Shown in pieces: positions 8,030 through 28,089 of a stretch of DNA of 32,000 nucleotides (its first letter is position 1; each line of letters opens with the position of its first letter). This DNA is from Candidatus Iainarchaeum sp. (GTDB lineage: Archaea; Iainarchaeota; Iainarchaeia; Iainarchaeales; JACQJH01). Below the pieces are notes generated by a model. The model saw only the letters and a program-made list of their open reading frames with translations, did no database searches and was not told the DNA's origin. Location: contig JACQJH010000002.1 in the NCBI GenBank assembly GCA_016205145.1, positions 300,001 through 332,000 on the forward strand. Reading direction: 5' to 3'. A program made the position numbers and the translations under genes.

Positions 8030-8102
8030 TAGGGAAGGGGAGAATCGGACTCCCGGTCTCTGCCGTGTGAAGGCAGTGTCATAGCCACTAGACCACTTCC
8101 CT
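8030..8102 (-). tRNA. tRNA-Val (anticodon CAC), no encoded CCA
   Basis: The minus strand folds by hand into a cloverleaf. Acceptor is AGGGAAG/CTTCCCT, the D arm contains GG, the anticodon stem is CTGCC/GGCAG with loop TTCACAC, the variable loop is 5 nt, and the T stem is GGGAG/CTCCC. The A1:U72 pair and the T-loop TCCGATT (C at position 55) are unusual. Confidence 0.8.
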
Positions 8103-9415: not shown

Positions 9416-9498
9416 TGCGGGAGGCAGGACTCGAACCTGCGGAGCCACTAAGGCACGGGCGCCTAAAGCCCGCGGAATTGCCGCTATCCCACTCCCGC
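9416..9498 (-). tRNA. tRNA-Leu (anticodon UAG), class II with long variable arm, no encoded CCA
   Basis: Acceptor is GCGGGAG/CTCCCGC, the anticodon stem is CGGGC/GCCCG with loop TTTAGGC, the variable arm is TGCCTTAGTGGCT, and the T arm is GCAGG-TTCGAGT-CCTGC. Confidence 0.9.
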
Positions 9499-11580: not shown

Positions 11581-14500
11581 TCAGACCTTTACGCGGATAA
11601 TCGCGCCTTTCTTTTTGAGGTAGTTGTCAACTATGAACAGTATTCCGAGTTCTAGTATCGCGGCCACTATTCCGAATAGTATGCCCAGAACCAGGTTCAC
11701 TGCCAGCGGCGCAACAAAGAACACCAGCGCAAGCAGTGTCCTTATCAGCAGGCGCTTGTTTTCCTCGCGCCTGGATACAACCTTGAGCTCGAACAGGCGC
11801 TTGAACACAACGAATGCGAGAACCGTGTCAATGATGCTGAGCAGCAGCAACAGCAGTGCAAGCATCGGCGCTTCCGTTGTGGCCCTGCCTAAAATGATTT
11901 TCGCGGAATCCGAAATCGTGCCCACAAAAGAGGATAACAGCGCGATGCCGCTGAATTTGGGCCTTGCAATGAGGTCGTCCTTTTTCACTACAAGGCTGTA
12001 CTCGCCCTCTTCCTTGACAATGAACCGGGCTTTTCCGTCAGCCGCGGTCGTGAAGGACAAAGACTGGCTGCTAGGCGAAACAACGCTGATTGAGGCGTCC
12101 TGCGCGGGCTGGCCTTTGACGAAAACCGTTATTTCCTGCGCCTCGCCCACGGGCACGGTATTCTTCAGGTCAACTGCCAGGCCCTCCGAAGCCGGAAGCT
12201 CGCCGCAATCCTTGTTTGACAGGCACTCGGCTTCGCCGAAACCGTTAACCAGAACGCATGCGTTTTGCTGGCAGGCCGCATGCTTTCCCTCGCATTCCGA
12301 GTCGGAAGAACACAAATCGTCGCCTATGCCTGCGGCCAAAATGCACGCATTGTTGCTGCAGACCGTGTGCGAGCCTTCCGAGCACTGCACGCTTGCGGAG
12401 CAGGACAGGCCGTCGGTATCAAAGTTGCTTACGCCGTCCCAGTTTGCCGGCGCAGGCAGAACGCAGTTGTTGGAGAGGCACATGCCGAACTTTTTGGCAC
12501 AGCCCTCGTCGACCTGGCCGTTGCCGTTGTTGTCAACGCCGTCGCCGCAGATTTCGCCATTGTCCGCGATCACGCGTTCAAAGGAATTGTTGTTCTCGTT
12601 CAACTCCGCGACCTGGTTGTCCTTGTCAACAGTTATCAGCAGGATATGGGAATCCTCGAACTCGGGCGCCGCCTGGAACTGAATCACGCCGGAGAAATGC
12701 GCGGTTCCGTCATTCTGCCCGCCAGGAACCTCGACCGCTTCGGAGCCATAAATGCTTCCCAGGCCGTTGCCATAACCGCCATCATTGCCGCCGTCGCCCT
12801 GTGAACCCGCGCCCCAGCCAGCCCCCCAGCCGTTGCCTCCACCGCTCACAATGCGATTGCCGGAACCGGAAGTGTTGGTAGGGCCAACATTCAAAGCGCC
12901 GGACGCAGTGGCGTTACCGGGACCACCATTTTCGTTTGCAGGCCTGCATTCGCTGTTAGACCATTCGCCGCCTTGGGCTACGCACGCGGCTTTTTTGGCC
13001 TTCTTTTCCGGCGTTATCTCGTTTCTGAAATCGTCGCTTGTAAGAGTAATCTTTTCAAATCTTACCTCGGCATTCGGATCGGAAAGCTTTGTCCTCTCGT
13101 TGCCGGAAACCTTACGCTCTGTTACCACCCTTGGATTGAACTCACGCCTGTCAGTGTACAACCCGTTCGAGAAATCCGAAGTTATGGGCTTGCCATTATT
13201 TTTCACGGCAAACTCGACTGAGGCAGAAATTATTTTTCCATCCTCGAATTGCACATTGGTGACTTTTACATCGGAAATGAAGAGGTCGGGCGCATTCTCA
13301 GGCGCGCCGCAATCCGTGTCGGAAACGCAGGTCGCAGGCCCGGCGCCGTCAACCATGACACAGGCCTTTGTGACCACATCGCATGCCGCATGCTTGTTCA
13401 CGCATTGGCTGTCGGCGGAGCACTGGTTCACGCCGGGGCCTATGCCTATCTGGCACGAGTCGTTGCTGCACACCGAATGCGTGTTGCTTGAACAATCGTC
13501 ATTGGAATGGCAGGTCGCAGGCCCGGCGCCGTCAACCAGAACGCATGCCTGGTTGACGCATGCGGCATGCTTGTCCGTGCAATCATTGTTAGCGGAGCAC
13601 TGGTTTGCGCCAGGGCCGAAAACCTGGACGCATGCATTGTTTGAGCAAACCGCATGTTTTTCCGTGGGGTCAGCGCACTGGGGATTCGACAGGCATTCGG
13701 CTTCGCCGGAACCATCAACCAAAACGCACGCGTTGCCCTGGCACGAGGCGTGCTTGCCCGTGCATTCGGCCCCGGAATCGCACTGGTTTCCGTCTTCGCC
13801 GATGACCCTGATGCAGGCATCATTGCTGCACACCGAATGCGAGTTTGAAGTGCAGGAGGAGTTTTGCATGCAAAGCTGGCCTTCTCCGGCAAGCTGGCAG
13901 GCGCTGAAGTCCGCGCTGCACCTTCCGACAGGAGCGGGCCCGCAGTCAGTGTCAGAATAGCATTCCGAAATGCCGGTGCCGGGAACAAGCGTGCAGGCAT
14001 TGTTTTCACAGACTTGCTTCTTGCCTGTGCAGTCGGCGTCCCTGCTGCAAAGGTCTTCGCCTTCACCCGCAGCGACAATGCAGGCAGAATTCTGGCAGGC
14101 AAGGTGGGTCACGTCGACCTCGCAGGAAGCATTCGTTATGCAGGATGCGCCGGTGCCGCCGGCAACGCATGCTTTGGAATCCGGGTCGCATTTTGCGCCC
14201 GCGCACGCGTTGTTTGATTCGCAGTCGGAGTCCGCGCAGTCAATCCTGCCGTCTGCATCGTCGTCAACGCCGTTCGTGCACTTTTCCTGCACAACGCAGA
14301 CATTGCCGCCGGCGGACCTTTCAAACACAATCTGCCCCGTGTTGTCCGTTTCAAGCAACTCGGATATTTTTTGCGTGTAGTCCGCGAAAACGCTGAAAAT
14401 CGTCCTTGACACAACCGAGTTTGCGGCAACGCTGAACGAAATGCTGCCGGAGTTCGCAACGCATTTGCCGATGCAGCACAGGCCTGCGTTGCTTGACTGC

Positions 14501-16188
14501 ACGGGCGTGCCGTCGCAGTTCTGCTTCGCGGAGCAGATTGTGCCGCCCTGCGTGGCGCACGGGTCAGGCAAAACCTTGACATTGATTTTAAGGAAATCCG
14601 CCAAAGAAGGGTCCTTGTCGGATTTGGATGCCACGAGATACGAATAATAGCCTGCCTTGCCGGGTGCCTTCACATTGACTGAAACACTTGAGTCCGATGC
14701 ATATGCGCCGCACGTCGCGGCGGCCAGGGAAACGTTCGCCGAGGAAATCGAAAGATTCGGCGCGGAAGCGCTGAGCGAAAAGGACTGCGCGTCGAACGAC
14801 GGGTTCGTAAGCAGCAATGGCACTGCCTGCCCCGCATTCCTTGCCATGGTCAAAAAGACCTCTTTAGAATTGTTGGAGGAAATTATTTTCGGAATTGGAA
14901 GGGCCATTGCACTCTTTGAAAAAGAATTCTGCAGGTAGCCGGTCATCTGCGGGCCCCTTACCGGCCAGTCGTATTTTGCGGAATCAAATTCAGCTGAAGC
15001 CACAATTGAAGTGGTGAAAAACAGGTCGGTTGTTGAAGGTTCGACAAACTGCACCGTCGTTTCCTGGCCTTTGGGCAGGGAAACGCTTTTTGTCCGCACC
15101 GCATTCATTGCGCCGCCCTTGAAGAAGTAAAGCTTTACCAGCAGGGGGAATGATTCAGTGAAATCCATGTCGCCGGTGTTCTTCACTTTGACGTTGAAAG
15201 TGAAGGGTTTGCCGGTGACGTACCAGAAATTGTCGGTTGGATGGGCCGCCACGATTATTGCAAAAGGCCCGCTTTTGACAGGAAAACCCTGGTTGCCGGC
15301 ATAATAAACCGTGTTCTGCACCGGCAATTGAGTCGTGCAATCCTCGAAATATTCTAAATGCATGTCATACAGTCTCACTGTGCCCGGATTCTTTGCAACG
15401 AAATTTTCAGTGAAAGCCTTTGACTCATCAGGCTGGAGGGAAAAAAACTGCGACGGGTGGCCTTCAACAAAAGCCGCGTTTGTCTCAACGTCGAAATATG
15501 CGCTCGGAGTCCTTTTGATGCAGACCGGCATGTTGCCATTGTTCTTGTAGCTCATGGTGTATGAAACATTGCTTCCCAAATTGAGCGGGCTACCGGCGGC
15601 TACAACGCTGCCTCCGGAGGAAACAACCATGTTTTTTTGAATCAGGGCGTATTCCGCGCCCTGCGTCGTGGTGTTATAGCACAGATTTGCGCCAACCGCG
15701 CCGTTGTTGTTGCCGCTGAAAGAAGCATAGCTTATGGCCTTAATGGTCTTCGGATTCATCGAGGGCGCAAAATATTTTGAATAGACAATCGTGCATTCGA
15801 ACGAATAGGTTTTAGTTTCAGCCGCGCAGAAGCGCTGGTTGGGAATGTCGCGCGTGTTTGGCTTCGAACAGTCAAGCAACAACGGGCCCGGCGACCCCCA
15901 TGTAAAATAAATCCTCGCGTTTGCGGTGGGATCCGAACCAATGTTCTGGACCGTTTCATCAATCCTCACGCGCGTGTTTTCGCCTATTGCAAAACCAGAC
16001 GGGCACAATGCCTTTCCCTGGCTTGGATTGCTTATGTCCGACAAGACAGTGCCGGCGAACGGCCCGTCCAAGGCGGTCATTTTGAGACCCAATATTTTCA
16101 TTTGGGGGTCTGCAAAGGCAGTGCCCGCCATGAAAAGCGCGAATAAAAGGAACGATGCCATTGCAGCCTGCCCGCGATTCCAAGCCAT
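11581..16188 (-). CDS. Giant secreted, C-terminally membrane-anchored cysteine-rich surface protein (1535 aa): CARDB-like domains, H-C4 repeat arrays, acidic DGxD motifs
   Basis: The signal peptide is MAWNRGQAAMASFLLFALFMAGTAFA|DPQ. The N-terminal ~630 aa is beta-rich with CARDB-like strands (VQNIGSD, YKNNGNM, VKNTGDM). About 10 H-C4 units span aa 664-960 and 2-3 more span aa 1236-1327. A CARDB-like domain (aa 966-1209) carries a Gly/Asn-rich insert. A Big/CarboxypepD_reg-like domain is followed by 3 predicted C-terminal TM helices. The ATG shares one nt with the upstream stop (TGATG). Confidence 0.9.
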   Translation of the reverse strand: MAWNRGQAAMASFLLFALFMAGTAFADPQMKILGLKMTALDGPFAGTVLSDISNPSQGKALCPSGFAIGENTRVRIDETVQNIGSDPTANARIYFTWGSPGPLLLDCSKPNTRDIPNQRFCAAETKTYSFECTIVYSKYFAPSMNPKTIKAISYASFSGNNNGAVGANLCYNTTTQGAEYALIQKNMVVSSGGSVVAAGSPLNLGSNVSYTMSYKNNGNMPVCIKRTPSAYFDVETNAAFVEGHPSQFFSLQPDESKAFTENFVAKNPGTVRLYDMHLEYFEDCTTQLPVQNTVYYAGNQGFPVKSGPFAIIVAAHPTDNFWYVTGKPFTFNVKVKNTGDMDFTESFPLLVKLYFFKGGAMNAVRTKSVSLPKGQETTVQFVEPSTTDLFFTTSIVASAEFDSAKYDWPVRGPQMTGYLQNSFSKSAMALPIPKIISSNNSKEVFLTMARNAGQAVPLLLTNPSFDAQSFSLSASAPNLSISSANVSLAAATCGAYASDSSVSVNVKAPGKAGYYSYLVASKSDKDPSLADFLKINVKVLPDPCATQGGTICSAKQNCDGTPVQSSNAGLCCIGKCVANSGSISFSVAANSVVSRTIFSVFADYTQKISELLETDNTGQIVFERSAGGNVCVVQEKCTNGVDDDADGRIDCADSDCESNNACAGAKCDPDSKACVAGGTGASCITNASCEVDVTHLACQNSACIVAAGEGEDLCSRDADCTGKKQVCENNACTLVPGTGISECYSDTDCGPAPVGRCSADFSACQLAGEGQLCMQNSSCTSNSHSVCSNDACIRVIGEDGNQCDSGAECTGKHASCQGNACVLVDGSGEAECLSNPQCADPTEKHAVCSNNACVQVFGPGANQCSANNDCTDKHAACVNQACVLVDGAGPATCHSNDDCSSNTHSVCSNDSCQIGIGPGVNQCSADSQCVNKHAACDVVTKACVMVDGAGPATCVSDTDCGAPENAPDLFISDVKVTNVQFEDGKIISASVEFAVKNNGKPITSDFSNGLYTDRREFNPRVVTERKVSGNERTKLSDPNAEVRFEKITLTSDDFRNEITPEKKAKKAACVAQGGEWSNSECRPANENGGPGNATASGALNVGPTNTSGSGNRIVSGGGNGWGAGWGAGSQGDGGNDGGYGNGLGSIYGSEAVEVPGGQNDGTAHFSGVIQFQAAPEFEDSHILLITVDKDNQVAELNENNNSFERVIADNGEICGDGVDNNGNGQVDEGCAKKFGMCLSNNCVLPAPANWDGVSNFDTDGLSCSASVQCSEGSHTVCSNNACILAAGIGDDLCSSDSECEGKHAACQQNACVLVNGFGEAECLSNKDCGELPASEGLAVDLKNTVPVGEAQEITVFVKGQPAQDASISVVSPSSQSLSFTTAADGKARFIVKEEGEYSLVVKKDDLIARPKFSGIALLSSFVGTISDSAKIILGRATTEAPMLALLLLLLSIIDTVLAFVVFKRLFELKVVSRREENKRLLIRTLLALVFFVAPLAVNLVLGILFGIVAAILELGILFIVDNYLKKKGAIIRVKV
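12208..12549 (-). repeat. Second H-C4 repeat block plus DGVDNNGNGQVDEGC motif within the 1535-aa gene
   Basis: aa 1214-1327: ICGDGVDNNGNGQVDEGC, then the units HTVCSNNACILAAGIGDDLCSSDSECEGK and HAACQQNACVLVNGFGEAECLSNKDC. Confidence 0.8.
13309..14280 (-). repeat. Tandem array of about 10 H-x2-C-x4-C-x10-C-x5-C units (~30 aa each, A/B alternating) within the 1535-aa gene
   Basis: aa 637-960. At the DNA level there is a 183-nt periodicity, with a 28-nt exact identity at 13328-13355 and 13511-13538. Confidence 0.85.
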
Positions 16189-18845
16189 CAGTTTCCGCCT
16201 CCGACTTTCAACTGCTTCGCCTGCTCTGGCGGACCGACAACGTCGCCGCGGTACAATCCCACGTCAACAAGCTGTTTTAGAACAGTCCTGCCGGCATTCG
16301 TTATCGTCGCGGTAATGGAAATGTTTTCATTCAGCGCATAGCACGTCCTTGGAGTGGAAGCCTTTGCAAGCAGGTCAGGCAGATCCGAAACATCAAGGCT
16401 TGCTTCATGCGAATTGTTGTATTCGTTGTTCTCTTCAATCGCCTTCGGCGCATCCGCCACAACCGAAACAATGACTGTGCCGAACCAGCTTGAAGTGTTC
16501 ACTTCAAACCTCATGATTTTCTGTTCGCCCGGCGTCAGGGAAACGAATGCCTCGGACAGCATTGAACCGAAGCCGCTTTGCCCTTCGAACAAAACCACGC
16601 CAACGTTCTTTGCAGTGTCGGAACCGAGGTTTTTCACTGCGGCTTCAAGCGTCACCGTTGAATTCGATGGCACTGAAATCCTGCCGCTCACGGCCGGGAA
16701 ATCCGGGGCATAAATGCTTGTCACGGTCAGGTCGGCGCATTCGTCTGTAACGCCGTCCTGGTCGTCGTCAACGCCGTTGCCGCAGATTTCCTTGAAAACA
16801 ACGTTATTGCAGCCTTCGTCGACCTCGCCGTTGCCGTTGTTGTCGACTCCGTCGTCGCAAATTTCCGACAGGCAATCGGCAGAGCACGCCTCGCCAATGT
16901 TGCAGACGCCGTCGCCGCAGACCGGGACAGGGCAATCATCATTGACCACGCACTCGGGCGGCCCGGGACCCGCGGCAAGCGCGCAAGCGCCGCTCACGCA
17001 CGCGGCGTGCTTCTTAATACAGTCGTTGTCAATAAAACACTGGTCTTCGCCAGGTCCTGCGGCTACAACGCACGCTTTATTGCCGCAAATAAAATGCGTG
17101 TCGCCCAGGCAGCCGGTTGCCGTGCTGCAAAGCTCGCCGTTTCCCGAGGTCGTGCACGCGCCCTGCGGATCGCATTTGCCGATCTGCACGGGATTGCACT
17201 GGCTGTCGGAAATGCATTTGGGTTCACCGGCGCCGCTGACGAGCTTGCACGCGTTGTTGACGCATTCCGTGTGGGTCTCAATGCAGTCGTTGTCAGAACC
17301 GCACAAGTCCGGACCGGGACCGGCCGCCTGGACACAAGTGCTGGGGCTTGTCGGACTGCACACCGCATGGGTTTCCGGGGGGTTGCACTGCAGGTTTATA
17401 TGGCATTTTGCGGGCCCCGCGCCGTCGGCAAGCGCGCAGGCTCCGCCAATGCAATCCGCATGCTTTGCGGTGCAGTCGGCGTTCGAAGAGCACTGGTTTA
17501 CGCCTTCACCGTCAACCTGAACGCACGCGCCGGAATCGCAAATTGCATGTTTGGGCACAACGCATTGTTCGTCGCCAAAGCAGGTCGAATCGCCTTTTCC
17601 GTCGACAAGCGCGCACGCATTGTTCTGGCACTCCATGTGCTTGTTCTTGCATTCTAAATCGGATGAGCACTTGTTCCCGCCGGTTCCCGCGACCTGCACG
17701 CAAGCATCATCAAGGCACACCGCGTGCGTTTCAGAACTGCGGCACTGTTCGCTGTTCTGGCATCTCGGATAGCCGGGCGCGCTTACAAGCACGCAGGCAT
17801 TCCCGACGCAACCCGAATAGACTCCCGGGCCGCACGTCGAATTGGAAGAACAAAGGCTGTCATCCGAACCGGAAACTGACAGGCACGCCTCGCTCTGACA
17901 TATCGCGTGATCCGCGGGTTTGCACTGCGCGTCAACCTGGCAGGTCGATGGACCGGGGCCGTCGACAAGCTCGCATGCATCGTTCACGCAGGCCATGTGC
18001 TTCTTTTTGCAGATTGGCGGGTTCGACGAGCATTCGTCGTCACCGGTTCCGAAAACCGGTATGCAAGCATCCCTGCTGCATGTGGAATGCATGGGCAGGA
18101 TGCACGAACTTCCGGGAGTGCAGAGCACGTTGCCCTCGCCTGACAGGGAACAGGTCTGTGTCACGTAGTCGCAGGTGTACTCAACGGGCTTGCATTCGTT
18201 GTCGGAAAGGCACTTTGCGGGTCCCGTGCCATCAACCAGAGAGCACGTTTGGTTCACGCATTCGGCGTGCTTGCCCTTGCACTGGGCATCGGAAGTGCAC
18301 TGCCATGGCGGGCCCGGTCCCGCGACAATCTCGCACTTGTCATCGGAGCAAACGGAATGGGTTGTGGGAATATCGCATTCCTCTGCCTTGCTGCAAAGCG
18401 CGCCCGTTCCCGTTGTCGAACAGGCTTTATTCTCAGCATCGCATCGTCCTGTCGCGCACGGCGGCAATTGTGCCGCCGCGGCCTCCGACTGGGCGCTTTC
18501 CCTGCCAAGCGAATCGACCGCGGACACATAATATGCATAGGAACCGCCCGCCTTGACATCCGTATCAATGAAGGAAGTTCCGGAAACCATTGACGCAATC
18601 TTGACCAGCGGCCCTTCCGCCACGGCCTTGTAAACGTTGAATGAAAGGCTTCCCGTAATGGCTCGTCCGCTGACGGTTTCCGTGGGCGCGGCCCAGAGAA
18701 CTTCAACCGCCTTTGCTTCCCCGCAAAGGAAACCATAGTATGGCGGGCCCGCATCCGGGTTCACCGGTGCCAGCACGGACGGCAGAAGCGCAAGCAAAGC
18801 GAAAAGCGCAAAAACCGCGCGCGCGTCATGGAAAACGGATTTCAT
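16188..18845 (-). CDS. Secreted cysteine-rich protein (885 aa): FN3-like domain, ~17 H-C4 units, acidic DGxD motifs, two CARDB-like domains
   Basis: The signal peptide is MKSVFHDARAVFALFALLALLPSVLA. The FN3-like segment is VEVLWAAPTE...FNVYKA...SFIDTDVKAGGSYAYYVSAVDSLGRES. H-C4 units span aa 130-637. VCGDGVCNIGEACSADC, ICDDGVDNNGNGEVDEGC and ICGNGVDDDQDGVTDEC follow. The CARDB-like domains begin at DLTVTSIYAP... and at DLPDLLAK.... No TM anchor is present. Confidence 0.9.
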   Translation of the reverse strand: MKSVFHDARAVFALFALLALLPSVLAPVNPDAGPPYYGFLCGEAKAVEVLWAAPTETVSGRAITGSLSFNVYKAVAEGPLVKIASMVSGTSFIDTDVKAGGSYAYYVSAVDSLGRESAQSEAAAAQLPPCATGRCDAENKACSTTGTGALCSKAEECDIPTTHSVCSDDKCEIVAGPGPPWQCTSDAQCKGKHAECVNQTCSLVDGTGPAKCLSDNECKPVEYTCDYVTQTCSLSGEGNVLCTPGSSCILPMHSTCSRDACIPVFGTGDDECSSNPPICKKKHMACVNDACELVDGPGPSTCQVDAQCKPADHAICQSEACLSVSGSDDSLCSSNSTCGPGVYSGCVGNACVLVSAPGYPRCQNSEQCRSSETHAVCLDDACVQVAGTGGNKCSSDLECKNKHMECQNNACALVDGKGDSTCFGDEQCVVPKHAICDSGACVQVDGEGVNQCSSNADCTAKHADCIGGACALADGAGPAKCHINLQCNPPETHAVCSPTSPSTCVQAAGPGPDLCGSDNDCIETHTECVNNACKLVSGAGEPKCISDSQCNPVQIGKCDPQGACTTSGNGELCSTATGCLGDTHFICGNKACVVAAGPGEDQCFIDNDCIKKHAACVSGACALAAGPGPPECVVNDDCPVPVCGDGVCNIGEACSADCLSEICDDGVDNNGNGEVDEGCNNVVFKEICGNGVDDDQDGVTDECADLTVTSIYAPDFPAVSGRISVPSNSTVTLEAAVKNLGSDTAKNVGVVLFEGQSGFGSMLSEAFVSLTPGEQKIMRFEVNTSSWFGTVIVSVVADAPKAIEENNEYNNSHEASLDVSDLPDLLAKASTPRTCYALNENISITATITNAGRTVLKQLVDVGLYRGDVVGPPEQAKQLKVGGGN
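16737..18458 (-). repeat. Tandem array of ~17 H-C4 units plus terminal acidic Cys motifs within the 885-aa gene
   Basis: aa 130-703. 13 of the 16 clear units start with H-x2-C. A-type units (..C.QV.G.G.NQC..) alternate with B-type units (..AC.LVDG.GP..C..). Confidence 0.85.
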
Positions 18846-18854
18846 CCTGAAACC

Positions 18855-19928
18855 TTACTTTTTCTTTGTCGAAATAATGTCGTTAATCGTGCAGCCGCCG
18901 TACCTTTGCGCAATGCACGCGTTGTTGTAAACCTTGAGCTTGCAGAAAACCGGTGCGAAACCCGCAGAACAGCCCGTTTCGCCGATCTGGGCAGCTACAG
19001 ACTGCTGGACCGGCCTTGTCTTGCCGCCGGCTTTCACAAGCGTTTCAAGCTCGAACCTGTAAAGGCCCAGTTGTTTGGAATCAAATGTGAAAGTGAAATT
19101 GTCGGATACCGGTGCAGCCTCGGTCTTGCCGTCCGGCAGGGTAACTTTCACGTTAAAGCCTTCAATGTCGCTGGCTGCCCTTGGGTCGGCTTCGCCAAGA
19201 AGCGGCCCGTAAGCGCCGACTTCGCTGAAGCCGGATGCAATGCAGCCGTTCTGGAGAATGACTTTCTTGAACAATGTGCAGGAGTCGGTTGAACCGCCCG
19301 CGCATTCCACAACGTTTGCATTCAAAGTGTCCTTCGGGGCCTCGGCAGCGGAACCCATGACTACAGCAGAGTATTTTCCGTTGATTTTGTAGAGGCCATT
19401 GGGCAAAGTCGAATAATACAGGTTTTGGGAAGCGGAATAATTGCACTTGCCGCCGAAATCCTCGAGAATCACGCCGGTCGGCGCCAATGCCGAATGCTTT
19501 GATTCTTCTGAAGTGGTGCAGGAAAGCCTGCCGCCGAAATCATAGCAGACGACACCCGCCACGCCCGCAAACACAAAGCCCTTGCCTGTAAGTTTTCCTT
19601 TCTGGCCCTGCTCCGCTCCAACAAGGATTGAGCCGCTGAAACTGCCGCAGCCGTTCTCGCAGGTCGAACTCCCGTCAGGGTTTGTTTTCTTGCCGTTGCA
19701 GAACATGCCTGCGGCCTCGCATTCGTTCGGCGGGGGATTTTCCTTGCATGTCACGCTGCAGGACTGCTCGTATTTCGCGCAATAGTCGCCGCCGTAACTG
19801 CCGGAAACGACTTGCGTGCATTGCGTTGTGCATTCAGTCTTGCATTCCCCGGTGCCCTGCGCTGAAACAGCGAAAAAAAGCGCGCCGAAAAAGCCTATTG
19901 TCAAAGCCAAAGCCAGTGTCCTTTTCAT
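18855..19928 (-). CDS. Secreted hypothetical protein with Cys-rich N-terminal region (357 aa)
   Basis: The signal peptide is MKRTLALALTIGFFGALFFAVSAQG. A Cys cluster follows (ECKTECTTQCTQ...CAKYEQSCSVTCKENPPPNECEAAGMFCNG...CENGC), then a beta-rich body. A 9-nt gap separates it from the next gene. No family is recognised. Confidence 0.85.
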   Translation of the reverse strand: MKRTLALALTIGFFGALFFAVSAQGTGECKTECTTQCTQVVSGSYGGDYCAKYEQSCSVTCKENPPPNECEAAGMFCNGKKTNPDGSSTCENGCGSFSGSILVGAEQGQKGKLTGKGFVFAGVAGVVCYDFGGRLSCTTSEESKHSALAPTGVILEDFGGKCNYSASQNLYYSTLPNGLYKINGKYSAVVMGSAAEAPKDTLNANVVECAGGSTDSCTLFKKVILQNGCIASGFSEVGAYGPLLGEADPRAASDIEGFNVKVTLPDGKTEAAPVSDNFTFTFDSKQLGLYRFELETLVKAGGKTRPVQQSVAAQIGETGCSAGFAPVFCKLKVYNNACIAQRYGGCTINDIISTKKK

Positions 19929-19974
19929 AAAGCCAACTCCAATTGTCCATTACATCGGATAAGCATTAAAAACC

Positions 19975-20703
19975 TCATCCGCTCCTCGGGGGAAAAACCG
20001 TTCCAACGTCTGTCGGCGGCTTGGGCGGGTCGGCGCAGCCTGAAGCATTAAATGTGCATGACGCATTGCATGCAAGGGTTCCGCCGCTGAAGCCGAGCGA
20101 TGCGCAGGTCTTGCCGTTGAGGTTGCTGCCCTCGCATTCCTCGCCGGGTTCAAGCTTGTTGTTGCCGCATACATAGTTTGCGCAGCCGCTCTTGTCGAGT
20201 TTGCAGGAAGCCGAGCATTTGAGGGTTCCGCCGTCAAAGCCGAATCCTGTGCAGGTTTGCGTGCCAAAATCGGTTTTGTCGCATTCCTCCCCAATTTCTT
20301 TCACGCCATTGCCGCAGACCGCGTCGGTGCAGACATTGTTCTTGCACAGTTTTCCTGCCAGGCAGTCGGCATCGGAACTGCAGAATTTCACCGTGCCGGA
20401 GTCAAGGGCACAGCCTTCCGAAGATTTGTCGCTTTCAACGCCGCCGGAAAGGGCGGTTATCTGATAACAGTATTCCGTGCCGCTGGTTGTTGCAGTGTCA
20501 GCATAGCTTGTCTCAACAGTTGAACCGATCGGGGAACTGCCGACAGAGGGTTTTGACCGGTAAATGTTGTATGACAATGGGCCTGAAATCTGCGAGCCAT
20601 CCGTGTTCTGCGTGGGCGCCTGCCATTGGATTATGACCGAAGCCGCGACAAGCGGCAGGACAAGCAGCAGGACAATTCCGATGAAAATTTTTTTACCCGC
20701 CAT
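19975..20703 (-). CDS. Secreted protein: FN3-like domain plus two CGNG-x-E-x-GEEC cysteine-rich repeats (DUF4215 / Myxococcus-type Cys-rich repeat-like)
   Basis: 242 aa counted from the ATG at 20703. The track uses the GTG at 20712, which would overlap the upstream stop. The signal peptide is MAGKKIFIGIVLLLVLPLVAA. The FN3-like segment is IIQWQAPTQNTDGSQISGPLSYNIYRS...TSYADT...GTEYCYQITALSGGVESDKS. The two repeats are VCGNGVKEIGEECDKTDFGTQTCTGFGFDGGTLKCSASCKLDKSGC and VCGNNKLEPGEECEGSNLNGKTCASLGFSGGTLACNASCTFNASGC. Confidence 0.85.
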   Translation of the reverse strand: MAGKKIFIGIVLLLVLPLVAASVIIQWQAPTQNTDGSQISGPLSYNIYRSKPSVGSSPIGSTVETSYADTATTSGTEYCYQITALSGGVESDKSSEGCALDSGTVKFCSSDADCLAGKLCKNNVCTDAVCGNGVKEIGEECDKTDFGTQTCTGFGFDGGTLKCSASCKLDKSGCANYVCGNNKLEPGEECEGSNLNGKTCASLGFSGGTLACNASCTFNASGCADPPKPPTDVGTVFPPRSG

Positions 20704-20708
20704 TGTTT

Positions 20709-22439
20709 TCACCCCGTGTTTTTGCAGCGCTCCGAAATTTTAAGGTTTTTGCAGTTCGGGGACGTGAGATTTGACTTGCAGGCATCCCACCACGTGTCAC
20801 AGAATTCCTTCTGGCTTGTCGTGCCATCAAGCGTGGGCGGCCTCGGCTTGGGCGCGCCCTTGAAATTAAAATTATTTTCCGGCGAGAAGTTTGTCATGAA
20901 AGTGGTCAGTTTGCCTAATGACAGATAGGTCATCTGGCCTGCCGCCGACCATTTTGGCTTGGCGGAGGAAATCCCGAGGGGCGGCGAAGGTATGGGCGTG
21001 CTCGCATAGCAGCTGCCGTACAATGATGAAACACCGCCTGGCAGGCTGCATGAAACGGGCCAGAATTGCTCTTCGCCCGCCTGCCAGGAAAGGTTAAAAT
21101 GGATTTTCAGGGTGTTTTGTGCCGGAATCCCGTCCGGATACGGGAATTCTGCTTGCAGTCTGCGCCCTCCCTGAATTTCACCCAAGGTTACCGTTGAACC
21201 GTTAGCCGGCCCCGGAAGGTTTGGCGCGGCGTAATACACTTGAACTGTTTTTTCGCTCCAAGGCCCGCAGTCCGAGAACGTTGAGCCGGTTTTTGTCTTG
21301 CATGCCCTGCCTTTGAAGGCGTAGGGGCCGATTGCCGGAAAGCCCCGTGAAAAAACCCCGGAACGCGGAATTGTTTCGGAGATGCTGGTTGTGGCGTTCA
21401 CGCGCGAAACAGGATAAGTGTAGCCCGGATAAATGTAGTTCAGCGGAGTGAGCACGAATTCAAAATACTTTGCCGCCTGCGAAACCGTGGCGCTTATTTG
21501 GATGCCGTCGGAGAGGTCTTCGGTTGCGCCGGGCGAAGTCATGGTCAGGGCAGCTCCAGTGCAGTCCTTTGAACAGTTGGCCTGGGTTTCGCCTGATTCG
21601 CAGGCATTGTTGCCGCAGACCGAGGAAATGCAGGCGCCGTTTGAACAGCCGAGCGGGCAGACAGTCCCGATTTCCGAATAACACTGGGCGTCCGGCGGAA
21701 GGTAACATGACTTCAAATTCCCGTTCAGGCAGTAACTTGTGCCCGGAGTGCAGGCATCGGTGCAGGTCTTGCACTGCGCGTTCGCACAGCCTTTCGTGCA
21801 TGTTTCGGTTGTGACCCATTTCTTGCAGCCGTTCACAATCCGGCATTCCTGGAGGTTGCTGCCGGAGCACTGGTAGGAAGTTGCAATGGAACACTCGTCA
21901 GTGCATGATTGCGGGACGCACGCGCCAGCGGAGCAGCCGTTGGAGCATTCTTCCACTTTTTCCGTGAGGCCGTATATGCTGACGCCCGGTGCCCGCGGCG
22001 GATTGTAATTCTTGTGGCATGCGTACAGGTCTCCGCTAACGCACGCCTTTTCCCCTTCAACATTGCAGCGATTGCCAACCAAAGCCCCGTCTTCACACCA
22101 CCAGTCTAATGCGCCGATCGCAAACTGCAGTGCCCTTCCATCCGGCGCGCAAAAACCTTCTTCAATCGAATGCGCATTCTGACAACGATCATTAACATTA
22201 CCATTAAACGGCGGATTGATCTGGCCTTTGGTAAAAAGGCTCGGCCCAAAAGGGTCGTAATACCACGTAACCGGTGCCCCGCTGGCGTCAATCGCGTTAA
22301 AAGGTTCAAATTCAGACGCGGTCCGCGTGGCGGATACAACAGTGTTATCGCTGTCAGTGCATGTCGCGGCGGCGGCTTCCGCCACAAAAAAGGACAGTAA
22401 CAGGATAGCAATCGCCCAAACAACATTTCTGCAATTCAT
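20709..22439 (-). CDS. Secreted cysteine-rich protein (576 aa), three Cys-knot-like modules plus CGNNxCExGE motif
   Basis: The signal peptide is MNCRNVVWAIAILLLSFFVAEAAAA. A CTDSDNT start motif follows. There are three modules of the form C..G.L..C....(W)....C..GC..G/A.C, then VCGNNACESGETQANCSKDC and a beta-rich C-terminal half. The ATG overlaps the upstream stop (ATGA). Confidence 0.88.
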   Translation of the reverse strand: MNCRNVVWAIAILLLSFFVAEAAAATCTDSDNTVVSATRTASEFEPFNAIDASGAPVTWYYDPFGPSLFTKGQINPPFNGNVNDRCQNAHSIEEGFCAPDGRALQFAIGALDWWCEDGALVGNRCNVEGEKACVSGDLYACHKNYNPPRAPGVSIYGLTEKVEECSNGCSAGACVPQSCTDECSIATSYQCSGSNLQECRIVNGCKKWVTTETCTKGCANAQCKTCTDACTPGTSYCLNGNLKSCYLPPDAQCYSEIGTVCPLGCSNGACISSVCGNNACESGETQANCSKDCTGAALTMTSPGATEDLSDGIQISATVSQAAKYFEFVLTPLNYIYPGYTYPVSRVNATTSISETIPRSGVFSRGFPAIGPYAFKGRACKTKTGSTFSDCGPWSEKTVQVYYAAPNLPGPANGSTVTLGEIQGGRRLQAEFPYPDGIPAQNTLKIHFNLSWQAGEEQFWPVSCSLPGGVSSLYGSCYASTPIPSPPLGISSAKPKWSAAGQMTYLSLGKLTTFMTNFSPENNFNFKGAPKPRPPTLDGTTSQKEFCDTWWDACKSNLTSPNCKNLKISERCKNTG

Positions 22440-23227
22440 TTCCTTTTACCCCGTTTAATTTGTGCTTTTCCCTTAATTTCTTTTTTTGCTTTCGGCTTTG
22501 CCCCCGGCTTCAATGGTTTTGCAGCCGGCCCGGGCTTTTGCGCCTGGCTTTGCGTGAAAGGCATTGCCATGGACGGCTGAGGCTCCGTTGCCGGCAGCAG
22601 GCGCGAATCGCCTTGCATTGTTTTTTCGCTTCCGCCGCCTGCGTGGGTTTTGGGTTTCCTGCTTATCATGAACAGGAAGCCGACCGCAGCCATAAACAGC
22701 GCGCCGAGCACGGCGATGGTCAGGTAGAATTCAAGCTGGCTCACCATTGGTTTCGGGAAAGGCGACGGCTTGGGCGCCTGCACCGGGCCCGGAGCAGGAG
22801 CCTGCGGCACTGCAGAACGCGGCCTTTCCGCTGGCAGCGGGGGTTCGGAGAATTGGTTGAAGTAGTTCACGATTGCGGGAACAGTGTTTTTTGCCGTGAT
22901 TTTTATTTCATAGTTTTTTTGCGGTTCCGCCGCGATTTCAACCGTGTACGTTTCCTGTTCGGGCGTGAATTCCGGTATGCGCAGCAATACTGTGCCGTTG
23001 ACGGAAATTTTGACGTCCAAGAGCTTTTTGACCGAAGTGTCAACCGAAAATTGGAGCACCAGCACCGCGCCATTCGAACCGTCTTTCGGCGCGACTGAAA
23101 CAATGGTTATCGGCTGTTGCGGAACGGAATTTTGCGCCGGCGCATTCGCGTCCGGGGAGGATTGCGCGAACACGGCGGAAGCAAGCATGGCAAAAAACAG
23201 CACTGCTATGGTTTTACCCCATCGCAA
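22436..23227 (-). CDS. Type-I membrane protein: signal peptide, Ig-like ectodomain, Pro-rich linker, TM helix, Lys-rich tail (first gene of the operon)
   Basis: 263 aa. The TTG start at 23227 is the only start that preserves the signal peptide MRWGKTIAVLFFAMLASAVFA|QSS. The TM helix is FYLTIAVLGALFMAAVGFLFMI and the tail is KPKAKKEIKGKAQIKRGKRK. Confidence 0.8.
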   Translation of the reverse strand: MRWGKTIAVLFFAMLASAVFAQSSPDANAPAQNSVPQQPITIVSVAPKDGSNGAVLVLQFSVDTSVKKLLDVKISVNGTVLLRIPEFTPEQETYTVEIAAEPQKNYEIKITAKNTVPAIVNYFNQFSEPPLPAERPRSAVPQAPAPGPVQAPKPSPFPKPMVSQLEFYLTIAVLGALFMAAVGFLFMISRKPKTHAGGGSEKTMQGDSRLLPATEPQPSMAMPFTQSQAQKPGPAAKPLKPGAKPKAKKEIKGKAQIKRGKRK

Positions 23228-25896: not shown

Positions 25897-25918
25897 GACA
25901 CAAGATTGAGGGCTTGCA

Positions 25919-25928
25919 GTTTAAAAGT
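25919..25928 (-). promoter_or_regulatory. TATA box for the GNAT-like gene
   Basis: The plus strand reads gtttaaaagt, centred about 27 nt from the ATG at 25896 (minus strand). Confidence 0.5.
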
Positions 25929-25972
25929 TTTCGGAATGCCGGAGGGCACAGGGCCTGAATGCCGCCAATCCG

Positions 25973-25982
25973 CTTTTTATTG
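25973..25982 (+). promoter_or_regulatory. TATA box for the AsnB/Dph6 fusion gene
   Basis: ctttttattg is centred about 27 nt upstream of the ATG at 26005. Confidence 0.5.
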
Positions 25983-26004
25983 CCTTTTTTTGACAAATCC
26001 CTTT

Positions 26005-28089
26005 ATGTGCGGCATCGCCGGATTTTTCGGTTTTCCTGACGCAAAAGCGAGGGCGGAAAAGGCGCTTGACTGCATGCAGGACAGGGGTTTGGACTGCCGC
26101 AAAGTCGTGGCTGAAAAGGAAAACGCCTTTGGCCATCTGCTTCACAGCGTCGTCGGCTCGGTTGAACAGCCATTGCGCGGAAAAGGCGTTTTCGCGTCAA
26201 ACTGCGAAATCTACAACTGGAAAGAGCTTGCGAAAAGGCACAAAGCCGGGGCGCGCAACGATTCGGAGCTTGTGTTCAGGCTGCTGGAACGCGAAAACGG
26301 AACCGGAAAAACTTCGCTGGAAAAAACCCTCGCAGAACTGGACGGCATCTGGGCCTTCTCATACTGGCGCAGCGGAAAAGTTTTTCTGTCACGCGATTTG
26401 TTCGGCGTGAAACCGCTGTTCTATTCCATTGAAGGCGGGTTCTGCTTTGCATCCGAAAAAAAGGCCCTGGAGGCTGCAGGCGCTGTTTCGGGAATACGCG
26501 AACTCGACCCGAGGCACGTGCTTGTTTTCGACCTGAAAACGAAAAAGGCGGAATTCCTGAAGCGGCCTTTTTTGAAAATAAAAAAACTGCGGCTGGATGA
26601 TGAGGGCGCGGAAAACCGGCTGATTGCCCTTCTATCAGATGCCGTGGAAAAGCGCGTGCCGGAAAAAAGCTTCGGCCTGCTTTTCAGCGGCGGCGTGGAT
26701 TCGCTTGTGCTTGCAGTGCTGTTCAAAAAAATGAATCTGAAATTCAAGTGCTTTTTCGCTTTTGCCGAAGGCGCAGGCGAGCCGAAGGATTTGGCGTTCG
26801 CGCAAAAAGCCGCGCGTCGGTTGGACCTGGACCTTGAGACCGTTCCGGTCAAGCTGGATGAAGTGCCGGGCCTGCTTGAAAAAGTCGTGCCGCTCATCGA
26901 GTCAAGCGACCCCGTGCGCGCCGGCGTCGCGCTTCCGGTTTTTGCCGCCTGCCGAGAGGCGAAAAGGCACGGCGTGAAAGTCATTTTTTCCGGCCTCGGC
27001 GCTGACGAGATTTTCTGCGGCTATGCGCGCTTCAGGCAGTCGAACAGCCTGCAAAAAGACTCGCTGAACCTCCTGCTGCAGATGCACGAAAACGATTTGT
27101 ACCGAGACGACGTGGTTTCAATGAACAACAGCATCGAATTGCGCCTCCCGTTCCTCGACAAAAGGCTCGCGGAATTCGCATTGTCGCTTCCGGACAGACA
27201 GAAGATTGAAGGCGAAAGGAACAAGGCCATCCTGAGAAACGCTGCGCTTGCACTCGGCATTCCGGCGGAATTTGCGGAGAGGGGGAAAATTGCGGCGCAA
27301 TACGGCAGCAATTTCGACAAGGCCCTGGAACGGCTTGCCAAAAAAAGCGGCTCGCATGGAAAGGCGGCATTTCTCCAAAGGTTCGCGGCGCGCAAAAACA
27401 TGAAGCTTGCCGCGCTGTTTTCCGGCGGCAAGGATTCGTGCCTCGCATTGTGGACAATGCAGCGCATGAACTATGAAATTTCCTGCCTTGTTTCAATCAT
27501 TCCGGAAAACCCCGATTCGTTCATGTACCACAGGCCGGACGAAAGAATACTCGCATTGCAGGCCGAAGCGCTCGGCATCCCGCTTGTCGTGAAAAGGACA
27601 AAAGGCGAAAAGGAAAAGGAACTCGTTGAATTGAAGTCTGCTTTGGCGGAAGCCAAAAAAAAATTCGGAACCGAGGGCGCGGTTTCCGGCGCATTGTACA
27701 GCAACTACCAGCGCGACCGCATCCAGGAAATCTGCAACGATTTGCATTTGCGCCTGTTTTCGCCGCTGTGGCACAAAAAACAGGAAGAGGAACTGCTGGA
27801 GCTTGTTGACGCGGGCTTTGAATTTGTCATGATAAAAATCGCCGCGTATGGCCTTGACGAAAGCTGGTTGGGAAAGCCGGTCGGGAAAAAAGAAATTGAA
27901 AAGCTCGCGGCACTGGGCAGTAAAATCGGCTTCAATTGCGCGGGCGAGGGCGGCGAATTCGAATCATTGGTTTTGGACGCGCCCAACTTCAAAAAACGCC
28001 TGAAAATCGTTTCATCGGAAAAGAAAATGCGGAACGCGTTTTCCGGCGAACTCGAAATAAGGGAAATCGGGCTTGAAGCAAAGCCATGA
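26005..28089 (+). CDS. Fusion protein: asparagine-synthase-like glutamine amidotransferase (Ntn GATase + PP-loop) joined to a Dph6/MJ0570-like PP-loop ATPase (DUF71, diphthine-ammonia ligase family)
   Basis: 694 aa counted from MCGIAGFFGF, where Cys2 is the class-II GATase nucleophile. The track start at 25906 is upstream of the TATA box. The first PP-loop is SGGVDS at 26686-26703. The second module starts at an in-frame Met at 27400 (MKLAALFSGGKDSCLALW, with the PP-loop at 27421-27438) and ends with the DUF71 motif EGGEFESLVLDAP. There is no stop between the modules. Confidence 0.8.
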   Translation: MCGIAGFFGFPDAKARAEKALDCMQDRGLDCRKVVAEKENAFGHLLHSVVGSVEQPLRGKGVFASNCEIYNWKELAKRHKAGARNDSELVFRLLERENGTGKTSLEKTLAELDGIWAFSYWRSGKVFLSRDLFGVKPLFYSIEGGFCFASEKKALEAAGAVSGIRELDPRHVLVFDLKTKKAEFLKRPFLKIKKLRLDDEGAENRLIALLSDAVEKRVPEKSFGLLFSGGVDSLVLAVLFKKMNLKFKCFFAFAEGAGEPKDLAFAQKAARRLDLDLETVPVKLDEVPGLLEKVVPLIESSDPVRAGVALPVFAACREAKRHGVKVIFSGLGADEIFCGYARFRQSNSLQKDSLNLLLQMHENDLYRDDVVSMNNSIELRLPFLDKRLAEFALSLPDRQKIEGERNKAILRNAALALGIPAEFAERGKIAAQYGSNFDKALERLAKKSGSHGKAAFLQRFAARKNMKLAALFSGGKDSCLALWTMQRMNYEISCLVSIIPENPDSFMYHRPDERILALQAEALGIPLVVKRTKGEKEKELVELKSALAEAKKKFGTEGAVSGALYSNYQRDRIQEICNDLHLRLFSPLWHKKQEEELLELVDAGFEFVMIKIAAYGLDESWLGKPVGKKEIEKLAALGSKIGFNCAGEGGEFESLVLDAPNFKKRLKIVSSEKKMRNAFSGELEIREIGLEAKP

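Follow-up and report, generated by a model that had tools for sequence, protein, structure and literature searches.

A four-cysteine, histidine-bearing repeat module in two putative surface proteins of a Candidatus Diapherotrites archaeon and its relatives in CPR and DPANN genomes

Two adjacent genes of a Candidatus Diapherotrites (DPANN) archaeon carry tandem copies of a Cys-rich repeat of about 30 residues, and the locus raises the question of what this repeat is and what it may do. The genes lie in a stretch of 32,000 nucleotides of a metagenome-assembled genome (MAG; contig JACQJH010000002.1, positions 300,001 to 332,000), here called the window, and are named after the lengths of their products, A885 (16188..18845, minus strand, 885 aa, a 100% match to the hypothetical protein HY394_04805 of NCBI) and B1535 (11581..16188, minus strand, 1535 aa). 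The initial annotation, made from the sequence, could assign the module to no family and proposed either a rod with two disulfides per unit or a repeated metal site formed by four Cys and a His. The bacteria of the Candidate Phyla Radiation (CPR) and the DPANN archaea are ultrasmall organisms, most of them episymbionts, and little is known of the way in which their surfaces reach and grip host cells. In the explanation that we favour, with a probability of about 0.68, the module is an autonomous extracytoplasmic mini-domain with two disulfides within each unit, repeated in tandem to make a stalk or spacer; the disulfides, the stalk role and the role of the His are what we infer from the evidence below.

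Units in A885 and B1535 were detected with a regular expression on Cys spacing only. This gave 30 four-Cys units, in agreement with the approximately 27 clear and 30 total copies first noticed. There are 17 units in A885 (aa 130-638; 16932..18458, minus strand), the number originally estimated, and 13 in B1535 (estimated at 12-13), which are divided between a first array of ten units (aa 662-960; 13309..14205, minus strand) and a second array of three (aa 1230-1328; 12205..12501, minus strand). All three arrays were checked by translation. The interval of 12208-18458 originally given to the repeats corresponds to B1535 aa 1327 and A885 aa 130 at its ends and also takes in parts that are not repeats, namely A885 aa 639-885 and B1535 aa 1-661 and 961-1229. 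The exact spacing C-x4-C-x10-C-x5-C is present in 20 of the 30 units. With a unit profile, 14 units in A885 and 10 in B1535 were recovered at independent E-values of 7e-8 to 2e-15 (the profile includes the units themselves), the full-sequence E-values of the two proteins being 1e-151 and 1e-94, and no other open reading frame (ORF) of the window had a credible match.

A His is positioned three residues before the first Cys (position -3) in 22 units, as had been counted before, and the arrays contain just two further His (24 in total). It is preceded by K in 11 units, T in seven, S in two and M and D in one each, which fits the earlier remark that K or T mostly stands there. The motif H-x2-C-x4-C was observed 20 times, against 0.7 expected and a maximum of four in 2000 shuffles in which the Cys were fixed and the remaining residues shuffled. 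When the 22 His-type units are aligned, the four Cys are invariant and the His, G16 and G18 are at least 90% conserved, the two Gly being those of the V.G.G pattern already pointed out. The two-unit super-repeat was also recovered, with a refinement. Types A and B alternate strictly, with a non-Cys identity of 0.362 within a type against 0.262 between types, a difference as large as this being found in none of 10,000 label permutations (p<1e-4; labels by array order only). A third type, C, is His-less with a spacing of C-x5/6-C-x8/9-C-x5-C (A885 aa 130, 225 and 558; B1535 aa 662 and 757), and a unit of this type is at the head of each A-B run, giving the architecture C-(A-B)n. The array of A885 reads C-A-B-C-A-B-A-B-A-B-A-B-A-B-C-A-B and the first array of B1535 reads C-A-B-C-A-B-A-B-A-B, while the second consists of a variant unit followed by A and B. 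This divergent head unit (B1535 aa 1230) is His-less, with Phe at -3, and keeps C-x4-C, its C2-C3 loop of 20 residues being ten longer than the canonical one.

No tandem repeat was found in the DNA of the region by Tandem Repeats Finder, indicating that the copies are old and diverged; the units have 27-57% amino acid identity to a reference unit. Cys accounts for 13.6% and aromatic residues for 1.8% of the arrays, a composition that leaves no hydrophobic core.

A word-indexed homologue search with a 514-aa array query yielded four relatives only, and nothing scored there with a two-unit profile (A4); it was an exhaustive search of representatives that revealed the family. Using HMMER and a 40-unit profile against 1.84 billion representative proteins, 1181 clusters were obtained at E ≤ 1e-3, 475 at E ≤ 1e-10 and 96 at E ≤ 1e-30, a large family with no annotated counterpart. 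Conservation was counted in the best 149 proteins outside the window, architectures in the best 150-151 and domain matches in 79 members. A loss of the His in relatives, which the initial annotation had considered, was not seen, as 603 of 688 frames (88%) identified on Cys spacing only have His at -3. Tyr (37), Arg (19) and Phe (5) replace it in approximately 9% of frames. With the Cys columns, Cys is present in every covering unit among 1127 profile-aligned units, the non-Cys states being alignment truncations. No Cys-to-His or Cys-to-Asp substitution was found among these, nor any substituted Cys with which paired loss could serve as a guide to disulfide pairing, and what look like half-units were traced to truncation of the local alignment or to variant spacings such as G-x-G-x-N-x-DGC-x6-C. 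The family consensus from the profile-aligned units is T-H-[LKT]-E-C-x-N-x-A-C-V-x-V-x-G-x-G-x-[DN]-x-C-x2-[DN]-x-D-C, and the units of A885 and B1535 score with the family frame H-x2-C-x4-C-x2-V-x-G-x-G-x3-C-x5-C (profiles A2, A4).

The number of units per ORF ranges from 1 to 24. There is no upstream Cys loop for 150 of 584 His-hairpins, these being single units amid Ser/Gly/Pro linkers or the first units of arrays. Units standing singly between flexible linkers must have their four Cys satisfied within one unit, and the alignments point to the module as an autonomous domain in the His-first register.

As initially supposed, the module belongs to no known family. There is no match to it in Pfam-A or NCBIfam for the window proteins or the 79 family members; the matches of the window proteins in these databases are to CARDB and to sub-threshold acidic double-disulfide repeats, in the flanks only. 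Searching sequences of the Protein Data Bank (PDB) with hidden Markov models of one and two units found nothing, and Foldseek gave no PDB structural neighbor for the AlphaFold2 models described below (best E-value 6.6 for four units, no match for an A-B pair). No paper describing the module was found in the literature on DUF7107 and Cys-rich CPR/DPANN surface proteins. In divergent relatives only, there is partial overlap with DUF7107 (PF23416), a domain of unknown function, to which no structure or literature is attached, with the frame C-x5-C-x5-C-x4-C-x10-C-x5-C and the motif C-x2-[DN]-x-[DE]-C. Its model matches four of the 79 members and passes the gathering score (24.6 bits) in two proteins, P0028 (34.6 bits) and P0036 (29.2 bits), with no match to A885 or B1535 at E ≤ 1. 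However, DUF7107 is a six-Cys unit of 48 residues, whereas the module is autonomous with four Cys, and its register is shifted, covering Cys3-Cys4 of one unit together with the next His-less unit, in a model that has no His. This register, in which a Cys3-Cys4 loop and the next hairpin would be joined, possibly by inter-unit disulfides, was rejected as the true domain on account of the 150 hairpins without an upstream loop. By sequence, a link at superfamily level is possible, with DUF7107 a distant relative at most. The module is a new family among the small disulfide-rich extracellular repeat modules. It stands out because the family is large, because it spans two domains of life while being nearly confined to CPR and DPANN, and because its His is near-invariant.

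This distribution was obtained by scanning the GTDB species representatives (596 Gb) with a degenerate DNA pattern of the canonical unit, which by our own calculation holds approximately 46 bits, such that fewer than 0.1 chance matches are expected. At least 120 loci match the pattern. Those listed come almost only from CPR/Patescibacteria and DPANN MAGs, 45 being named as the former (Saccharibacteria, Peribacteria/Peregrinibacteria, Paceibacterota and others) and 46 as the latter (Micrarchaeota, Woesearchaeota, Nanoarchaeota, Pacearchaeota, Iainarchaeum, Aenigmatarchaeota and Altiarchaeota); 15 are an unclassified "archaeon" or "bacterium" and 14 are labelled as other taxa. Five loci labelled "Gammaproteobacteria" (L009, L014, L054, L071, L085) have sortase-type tails of PPPIP[EQK]SG followed by a transmembrane (TM) segment, and the C-terminal 45 residues of the L054 ORF are those of family member P0005. 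For these reasons the contigs probably come from CPR bacteria resembling Saccharibacteria and were mis-binned or mislabelled. Two "Deltaproteobacteria" loci of high guanine-cytosine (GC) content belong, with P0002, P0028 and P0036, to a divergent subfamily that appears to be genuine. It was also observed that His-bearing and His-less units alternate in this high-GC subfamily (P0028, P0036, P0033; L032, L084), and that the N-terminus of P0002 (…TTFLSGCLGD…) looks like a candidate lipoprotein signal. The canonical-unit pattern was present in three of 2.9 million viral contigs of IMG/VR (L121, L122, L123), which may be viruses of CPR or DPANN or host DNA flanking prophages. A module shared across two domains of life and rare elsewhere suggests either inter-domain transfer or a common solution for thin, protease-resistant stalks.

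Family members have the features of surface proteins. An N-terminal signal or TM segment is present in 101 of 151 proteins, and frequent C-termini are [ILV]P.[ST]G followed by a TM segment and a basic tail, sorting tails such as DTGPAAVAVIGAGAAAG..RRKK, or plain TM anchors. Domains co-occurring with the module in the 79 members are PKD (8), DsbA/Thioredoxin_4 (5), DUF4215 (5), TIGR02232 (9) and CARDB (3), with single cases of VWA, beta-propellers, a beta-helix and type IV pilin N-termini. From these features A885, B1535 and the family as a whole are predicted to be extracytoplasmic, either anchored or secreted. In six of the 150 top proteins (P0060, P0061, P0103, P0070, P0038, P0066) a signal or TM segment is followed by 9-13 modules and then by a DsbA-like domain with an intact CGMC, which NCBIfam ties to the Rcas_1661-family thioredoxin-like (seleno)lipoproteins. 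CPR genomes are enriched in MdbA-like oxidoreductases (fam000318), in a VKOR adjacent to them and in sortase (Méheust et al., 2019, PMC6744442). In the six members a domain of this MdbA/DsbA type, which belongs to extracytoplasmic oxidoreductases of Gram-positive-like envelopes, is a partner of the module and not its homologue, with the array as its tether, and none is found in the window. Fusion to DsbA-like oxidoreductases places the module in a compartment where disulfides are made.

A four-unit fragment (A-B-A-B, B1535 aa 780-904) was modelled with AlphaFold2 from a 14-sequence alignment, giving a predicted local distance difference test score (pLDDT) of 85 and a predicted template modelling score (pTM) of 0.51, while an A-B pair with a 22-sequence alignment reached a pLDDT of 94.8 and a pTM of 0.76. 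The high pTM of the pair against the lower value for four units suggests that A-B pairs are rigid bodies which are joined to each other more flexibly. Every modelled unit has a beta-hairpin with six residues per strand and a two-residue turn, a loop, and a helix of four residues that ends at Cys4. In the predicted secondary structure Cys1 and Cys2 are directly cross-strand and the His at -3 pairs with the conserved Val14, so that by strand alternation in the DSSP string the His would be on the face of the hairpin opposite to Cys1 and Cys2.

The role of the His may be approached through the residues with which it varies. It covaries with the G-x-G loop (odds ratio 12.8, p = 8e-22) and with V/I14 (odds ratio 4.6) and [DN]20 (4.5), and shows no covariation with the C-terminal acidic positions. 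A pairing of the His with the acidic residue before the preceding Cys4 was also considered and was rejected, with no association found (p = 0.44). Where a small residue is present at -3, the loop contains a His in six of 20 units, compared with two of the 603 His units (p = 1e-8), and in four of the six this loop His is at the Gly18 site itself (…TGVHEHQC, …YGLHTVEC; P0028, P0036, P0033). This apparent positional swap would imply spatial contact of the His position with the loop. In combination with the replacements by Tyr, Phe and Arg, and with the C-type units that have four Cys and no His, it favors a planar side chain packed over the Gly loop, a structural keystone rather than a metal ligand.

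The proposed mechanism is as follows. Each unit of approximately 30 residues would form a hairpin, a G-x-G loop and a one-turn helix, most likely held by two intra-unit disulfides, with the near-invariant His as the keystone that packs against the loop, cross-strand from the conserved Val. Units in tandem would then make a long, protease-resistant, acidic stalk, which in the window would be made of rigid A-B pairs, every run of them starting with a C-type unit. The stalk of B1535 would hold CARDB/Ig-like head domains off the membrane anchor, and that of A885, which is anchorless and probably translationally coupled to B1535, would do likewise in a partner protein. In relatives, PKD domains, pilins or DsbA-like oxidoreductases would be carried in this way by proteins of CPR and DPANN that have a sortase-type or TM anchor. 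Such stalks would be long and yet built with very little coding material.

The rod with two disulfides per unit that had been put forward initially is favored by the lack of a core, the surface location, the tethering of DsbA-like domains and the variable number of units, as well as by the invariant Cys and the occurrence of single units, although its disulfides are deduced. A number of points weigh against it. No DsbA or VKOR gene is present within the 32-kb window, and many of the source MAGs are from anoxic groundwater, a setting in which disulfides at the cell surface require a dedicated oxidase. The pairing of the presumed disulfides could be 1-2/3-4, 1-3/2-4 or 1-4/2-3, and the stalk function is read from architecture. 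As for the His, the swap was seen in three proteins that are phylogenetically non-independent. A residue that did nothing but pack would not usually be conserved at 88-95%, and it is an imidazole in particular that the swapped variants retain, which leaves room for a chemical role.

Instead of spacing other domains, the arrays might themselves be a binding surface, that is, a multivalent adhesin or lectin for host glycans or for an S-layer in episymbiosis, its ligand site being the exposed His/Val face or the [DN]-x-C-x2-[DN]-x-D loop, possibly with Ca2+. The near-restriction of the module to lineages of episymbionts would suit this, as would A885, which is anchorless and mostly made up of modules, and the conserved D/N at positions 20, 25 and 27 recall the loops of Ca-binding EGF and TSP3 domains. 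A similarity to the lectin scytovirin was also seen, though it is weak and non-significant (E = 0.81). However, B-type units have no D/N at position 20, and no lectin homology of significance was found. In addition, most members end the array with typical binding or enzymatic domains (CARDB, PKD, DsbA-like, VWA, beta-propellers), and the unit number varies as it would for a spacer. An adhesive array is considered unlikely, though it is the likeliest of the alternatives.

The second reading offered by the initial annotation, a repeated site for Zn, Cu or Fe bound through Cys thiolates with or without the His, giving metal-stabilised rods, sponges or redox conduits, did not stand up well. It would account for four invariant Cys with a His conserved at 88-95% and for the swapped variants, in which it is the imidazole that is retained; thiolates would persist in the many hosts that are anaerobes, and the order of hairpin, loop and short helix is superficially like that of treble-clef zinc sites. 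But Tyr, Phe or Arg stands in place of the His in approximately 9% of frames, six C-type units are without it and have all four Cys, and in the models the His, at i-3 of Cys1, would face away from Cys1 and Cys2. Zinc ribbons and treble clefs have two CxxC knuckles, in place of which the module has C-x4-C and C-x5-C, and multihaem c-type cytochromes have CxxCH; neither A885 nor B1535 contains a single CxxC or CxxCH motif. The 1127 aligned units, with no exchange of Cys for His or Asp, and the extracytoplasmic setting, with a catalytically intact DsbA-like domain in some relatives, point in the same direction, and a metal site is judged to be quite improbable. Related to this, the conserved imidazole could be chemical in function, by metal binding or as a pH or redox switch through the His and Cys thiolates in multi-metal surface rods, for which the odds appear poorer again. 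If it were true, the arrays of 17 and 13 units, like hundreds of surface proteins of CPR and DPANN, would capture metals, exchange electrons by redox or stiffen reversibly at the interface of symbiont and host, in a module exchanged between Bacteria and Archaea.

A polyprotein precursor, in which cleavage at the K/T-H linkers would free small Cys-rich peptides with an antimicrobial or signalling function, is suggested by the tandem 30-aa Cys-rich units and by basic linker residues (GKH, KKH). Some eukaryotic knottin and defensin precursors are tandem Cys-rich units of this sort that are cleaved into peptides. Here, however, the arrays are flanked by folded domains and anchors, the A-B linkers have six residues only, the model of the pair is that of a single rigid body (pTM 0.76), and no protease or maturation genes are found in the cluster, which makes this hardly credible. 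Finally, a compositional artefact, whether a low-complexity Cys/Gly region with a fortuitous period or a mis-called ORF, might be suspected from the higher GC content of the region (0.56-0.60) and its many overlapping alternative ORFs, but is refuted by the profile E-values, hundreds of homologues in the same frame, the shuffle control and confident AlphaFold2 models.

The module, taken as a disulfide-held stalk, can be compared with systems that are already described. Like EGF-like, TNFR, laminin and furin modules, it is a core-less, Cys-framed hairpin of the 30-40-residue class which in tandem would form rods that space domains off the membrane. TNFR domains, too, are built from alternating module types. 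Unlike the EGF-like, TNFR and laminin modules, which have six Cys, it has four together with the His/G-x-G signature, and is prokaryotic and nearly restricted to CPR and DPANN; none of their Pfam models matches the window proteins or the 79 members, and no match of sequence or fold was found in the PDB. The acidic double-disulfide or TSP3-like repeats (NF033662, TIGR02232, DUF4215) are prokaryotic, extracellular and predicted to have disulfides, and occur in the same proteins in the flanks of the arrays. They differ in their Asp-rich pattern C-x-[DN]-G-x-D-[DN]-[DN]-x-[DN]-G-x-x-D-E-x-C, with no hairpin-helix and no His. NF033662 does not score on the module, its matches in the window being below cut-off and on flanking segments only, and the TIGR02232 matches in nine of the 79 members fall on a different repeat. 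At the level of sequence, the module marks a great many CPR and DPANN surface proteins (over 1,000 clusters at 50% identity). A Pfam-style model made from the present profiles would annotate thousands of "hypothetical proteins" and would flag candidate attachment proteins and tethered disulfide oxidoreductases.

With regard to the rest of A885, the order of its parts is signal peptide, Fn3-like domain, 17 modules, acidic Cys repeats and CARDB. The signal peptide (aa 1-26; 18768..18845, minus strand) is a hydrophobic segment with a putative cleavage site at ...LLPSVLA|PVNP, and the hydropathy scan showed this N-terminal signal alone, with no membrane anchor. The Fn3-like domain (aa ~44-125; 18471..18716, minus strand) is homologous to the N-terminus of the 245-aa product of the neighboring gene g245, with 37% identity (BLASTP, E = 5e-12); g245 itself has weak fn3 and RGI_lyase matches. 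Following the array are an acidic double-disulfide (TSP3-like) repeat (aa 686-705; 16731..16790, minus strand; NF033662, E = 4e-4, under the curated cut-off) and a CARDB domain (aa 723-814; 16404..16679, minus strand; PF07705, E = 6.9e-11).

B1535 starts with a signal peptide (aa 1-26; 16111..16188, minus strand; probable cleavage at ...MAGTAFA|DPQ), a beta-rich head of approximately 520 aa and an acidic double-disulfide repeat (aa 634-662; 14203..14289, minus strand; NF033662, E = 1e-8, 34.8 bits with a cut-off of 41), which is directly N-terminal to the first array of ten modules. A CARDB-like and Gly-rich region comes next, with a partial CARDB match at aa 1170-1204 (12577..12681, minus strand; PF07705, E = 7.2e-9), and is followed by the three modules of the second array, a beta-sandwich and a multi-TM anchor, this being a hydrophobic segment with two to three TM helices in a Kyte-Doolittle scan (aa ~1431-1517; 11638..11898, minus strand). 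Between the two arrays (12800-13000, minus strand; aa ~1085-1140) there is a Gly/Trp/Asn-rich low-complexity stretch, GNGWGAGWGAGSQGDGGNDGGYGNGLGS, which may act as a flexible hinge.

The stop codon of A885 overlaps the ATG start of B1535 in the sequence TGATG, suggesting translational coupling. The two are the last of six co-directional genes (23227 down to 11581), the other four being g357, g245, g576 and g263 (18855..23227, minus strand), whose starts and stops overlap or abut. All six have N-terminal signal peptides, and five have a Cys content of 4.9-8.9%, with g357 at 5.6%, g245 at 7.3% and g576 at 6.8%, the exception being g263, which has no Cys. The six genes are probably one surface-protein operon. 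The unit profile, run over the ORFs of the window, found no module in g357, g245, g576 or g263. It is worth mentioning that g576 has repeated C..GC..G.C motifs with no Pfam match. In g245 (19975-20712, minus strand), aa 97-129, CSSDADCLAGKLCKNNVC, have weak matches to DUF7107 and Dickkopf_N, and the frame of this segment, C-x5-C-x5-C-x4-C, is a circularly shifted form of the module frame.

The flanking genes are of a housekeeping nature, with a Vut_1 transporter, Ham1, tRNAs, MscS, a HerA-like ATPase, TatD and an AsnB/Dph6-like fusion. ARAGORN called a tRNA-Val(CAC) at 8030-8102 (minus strand), while a scan of Rfam at gathering threshold reports a tRNA-Leu at 9416-9498 alone. The fusion is an ORF of 727 aa (25906-28089, plus strand) with GATase_7 and Asn_synthase domains and a C-terminal Diphthami_syn_2 domain (PF01902, Dph6-like), an unusual joining of two PP-loop amidating enzymes.

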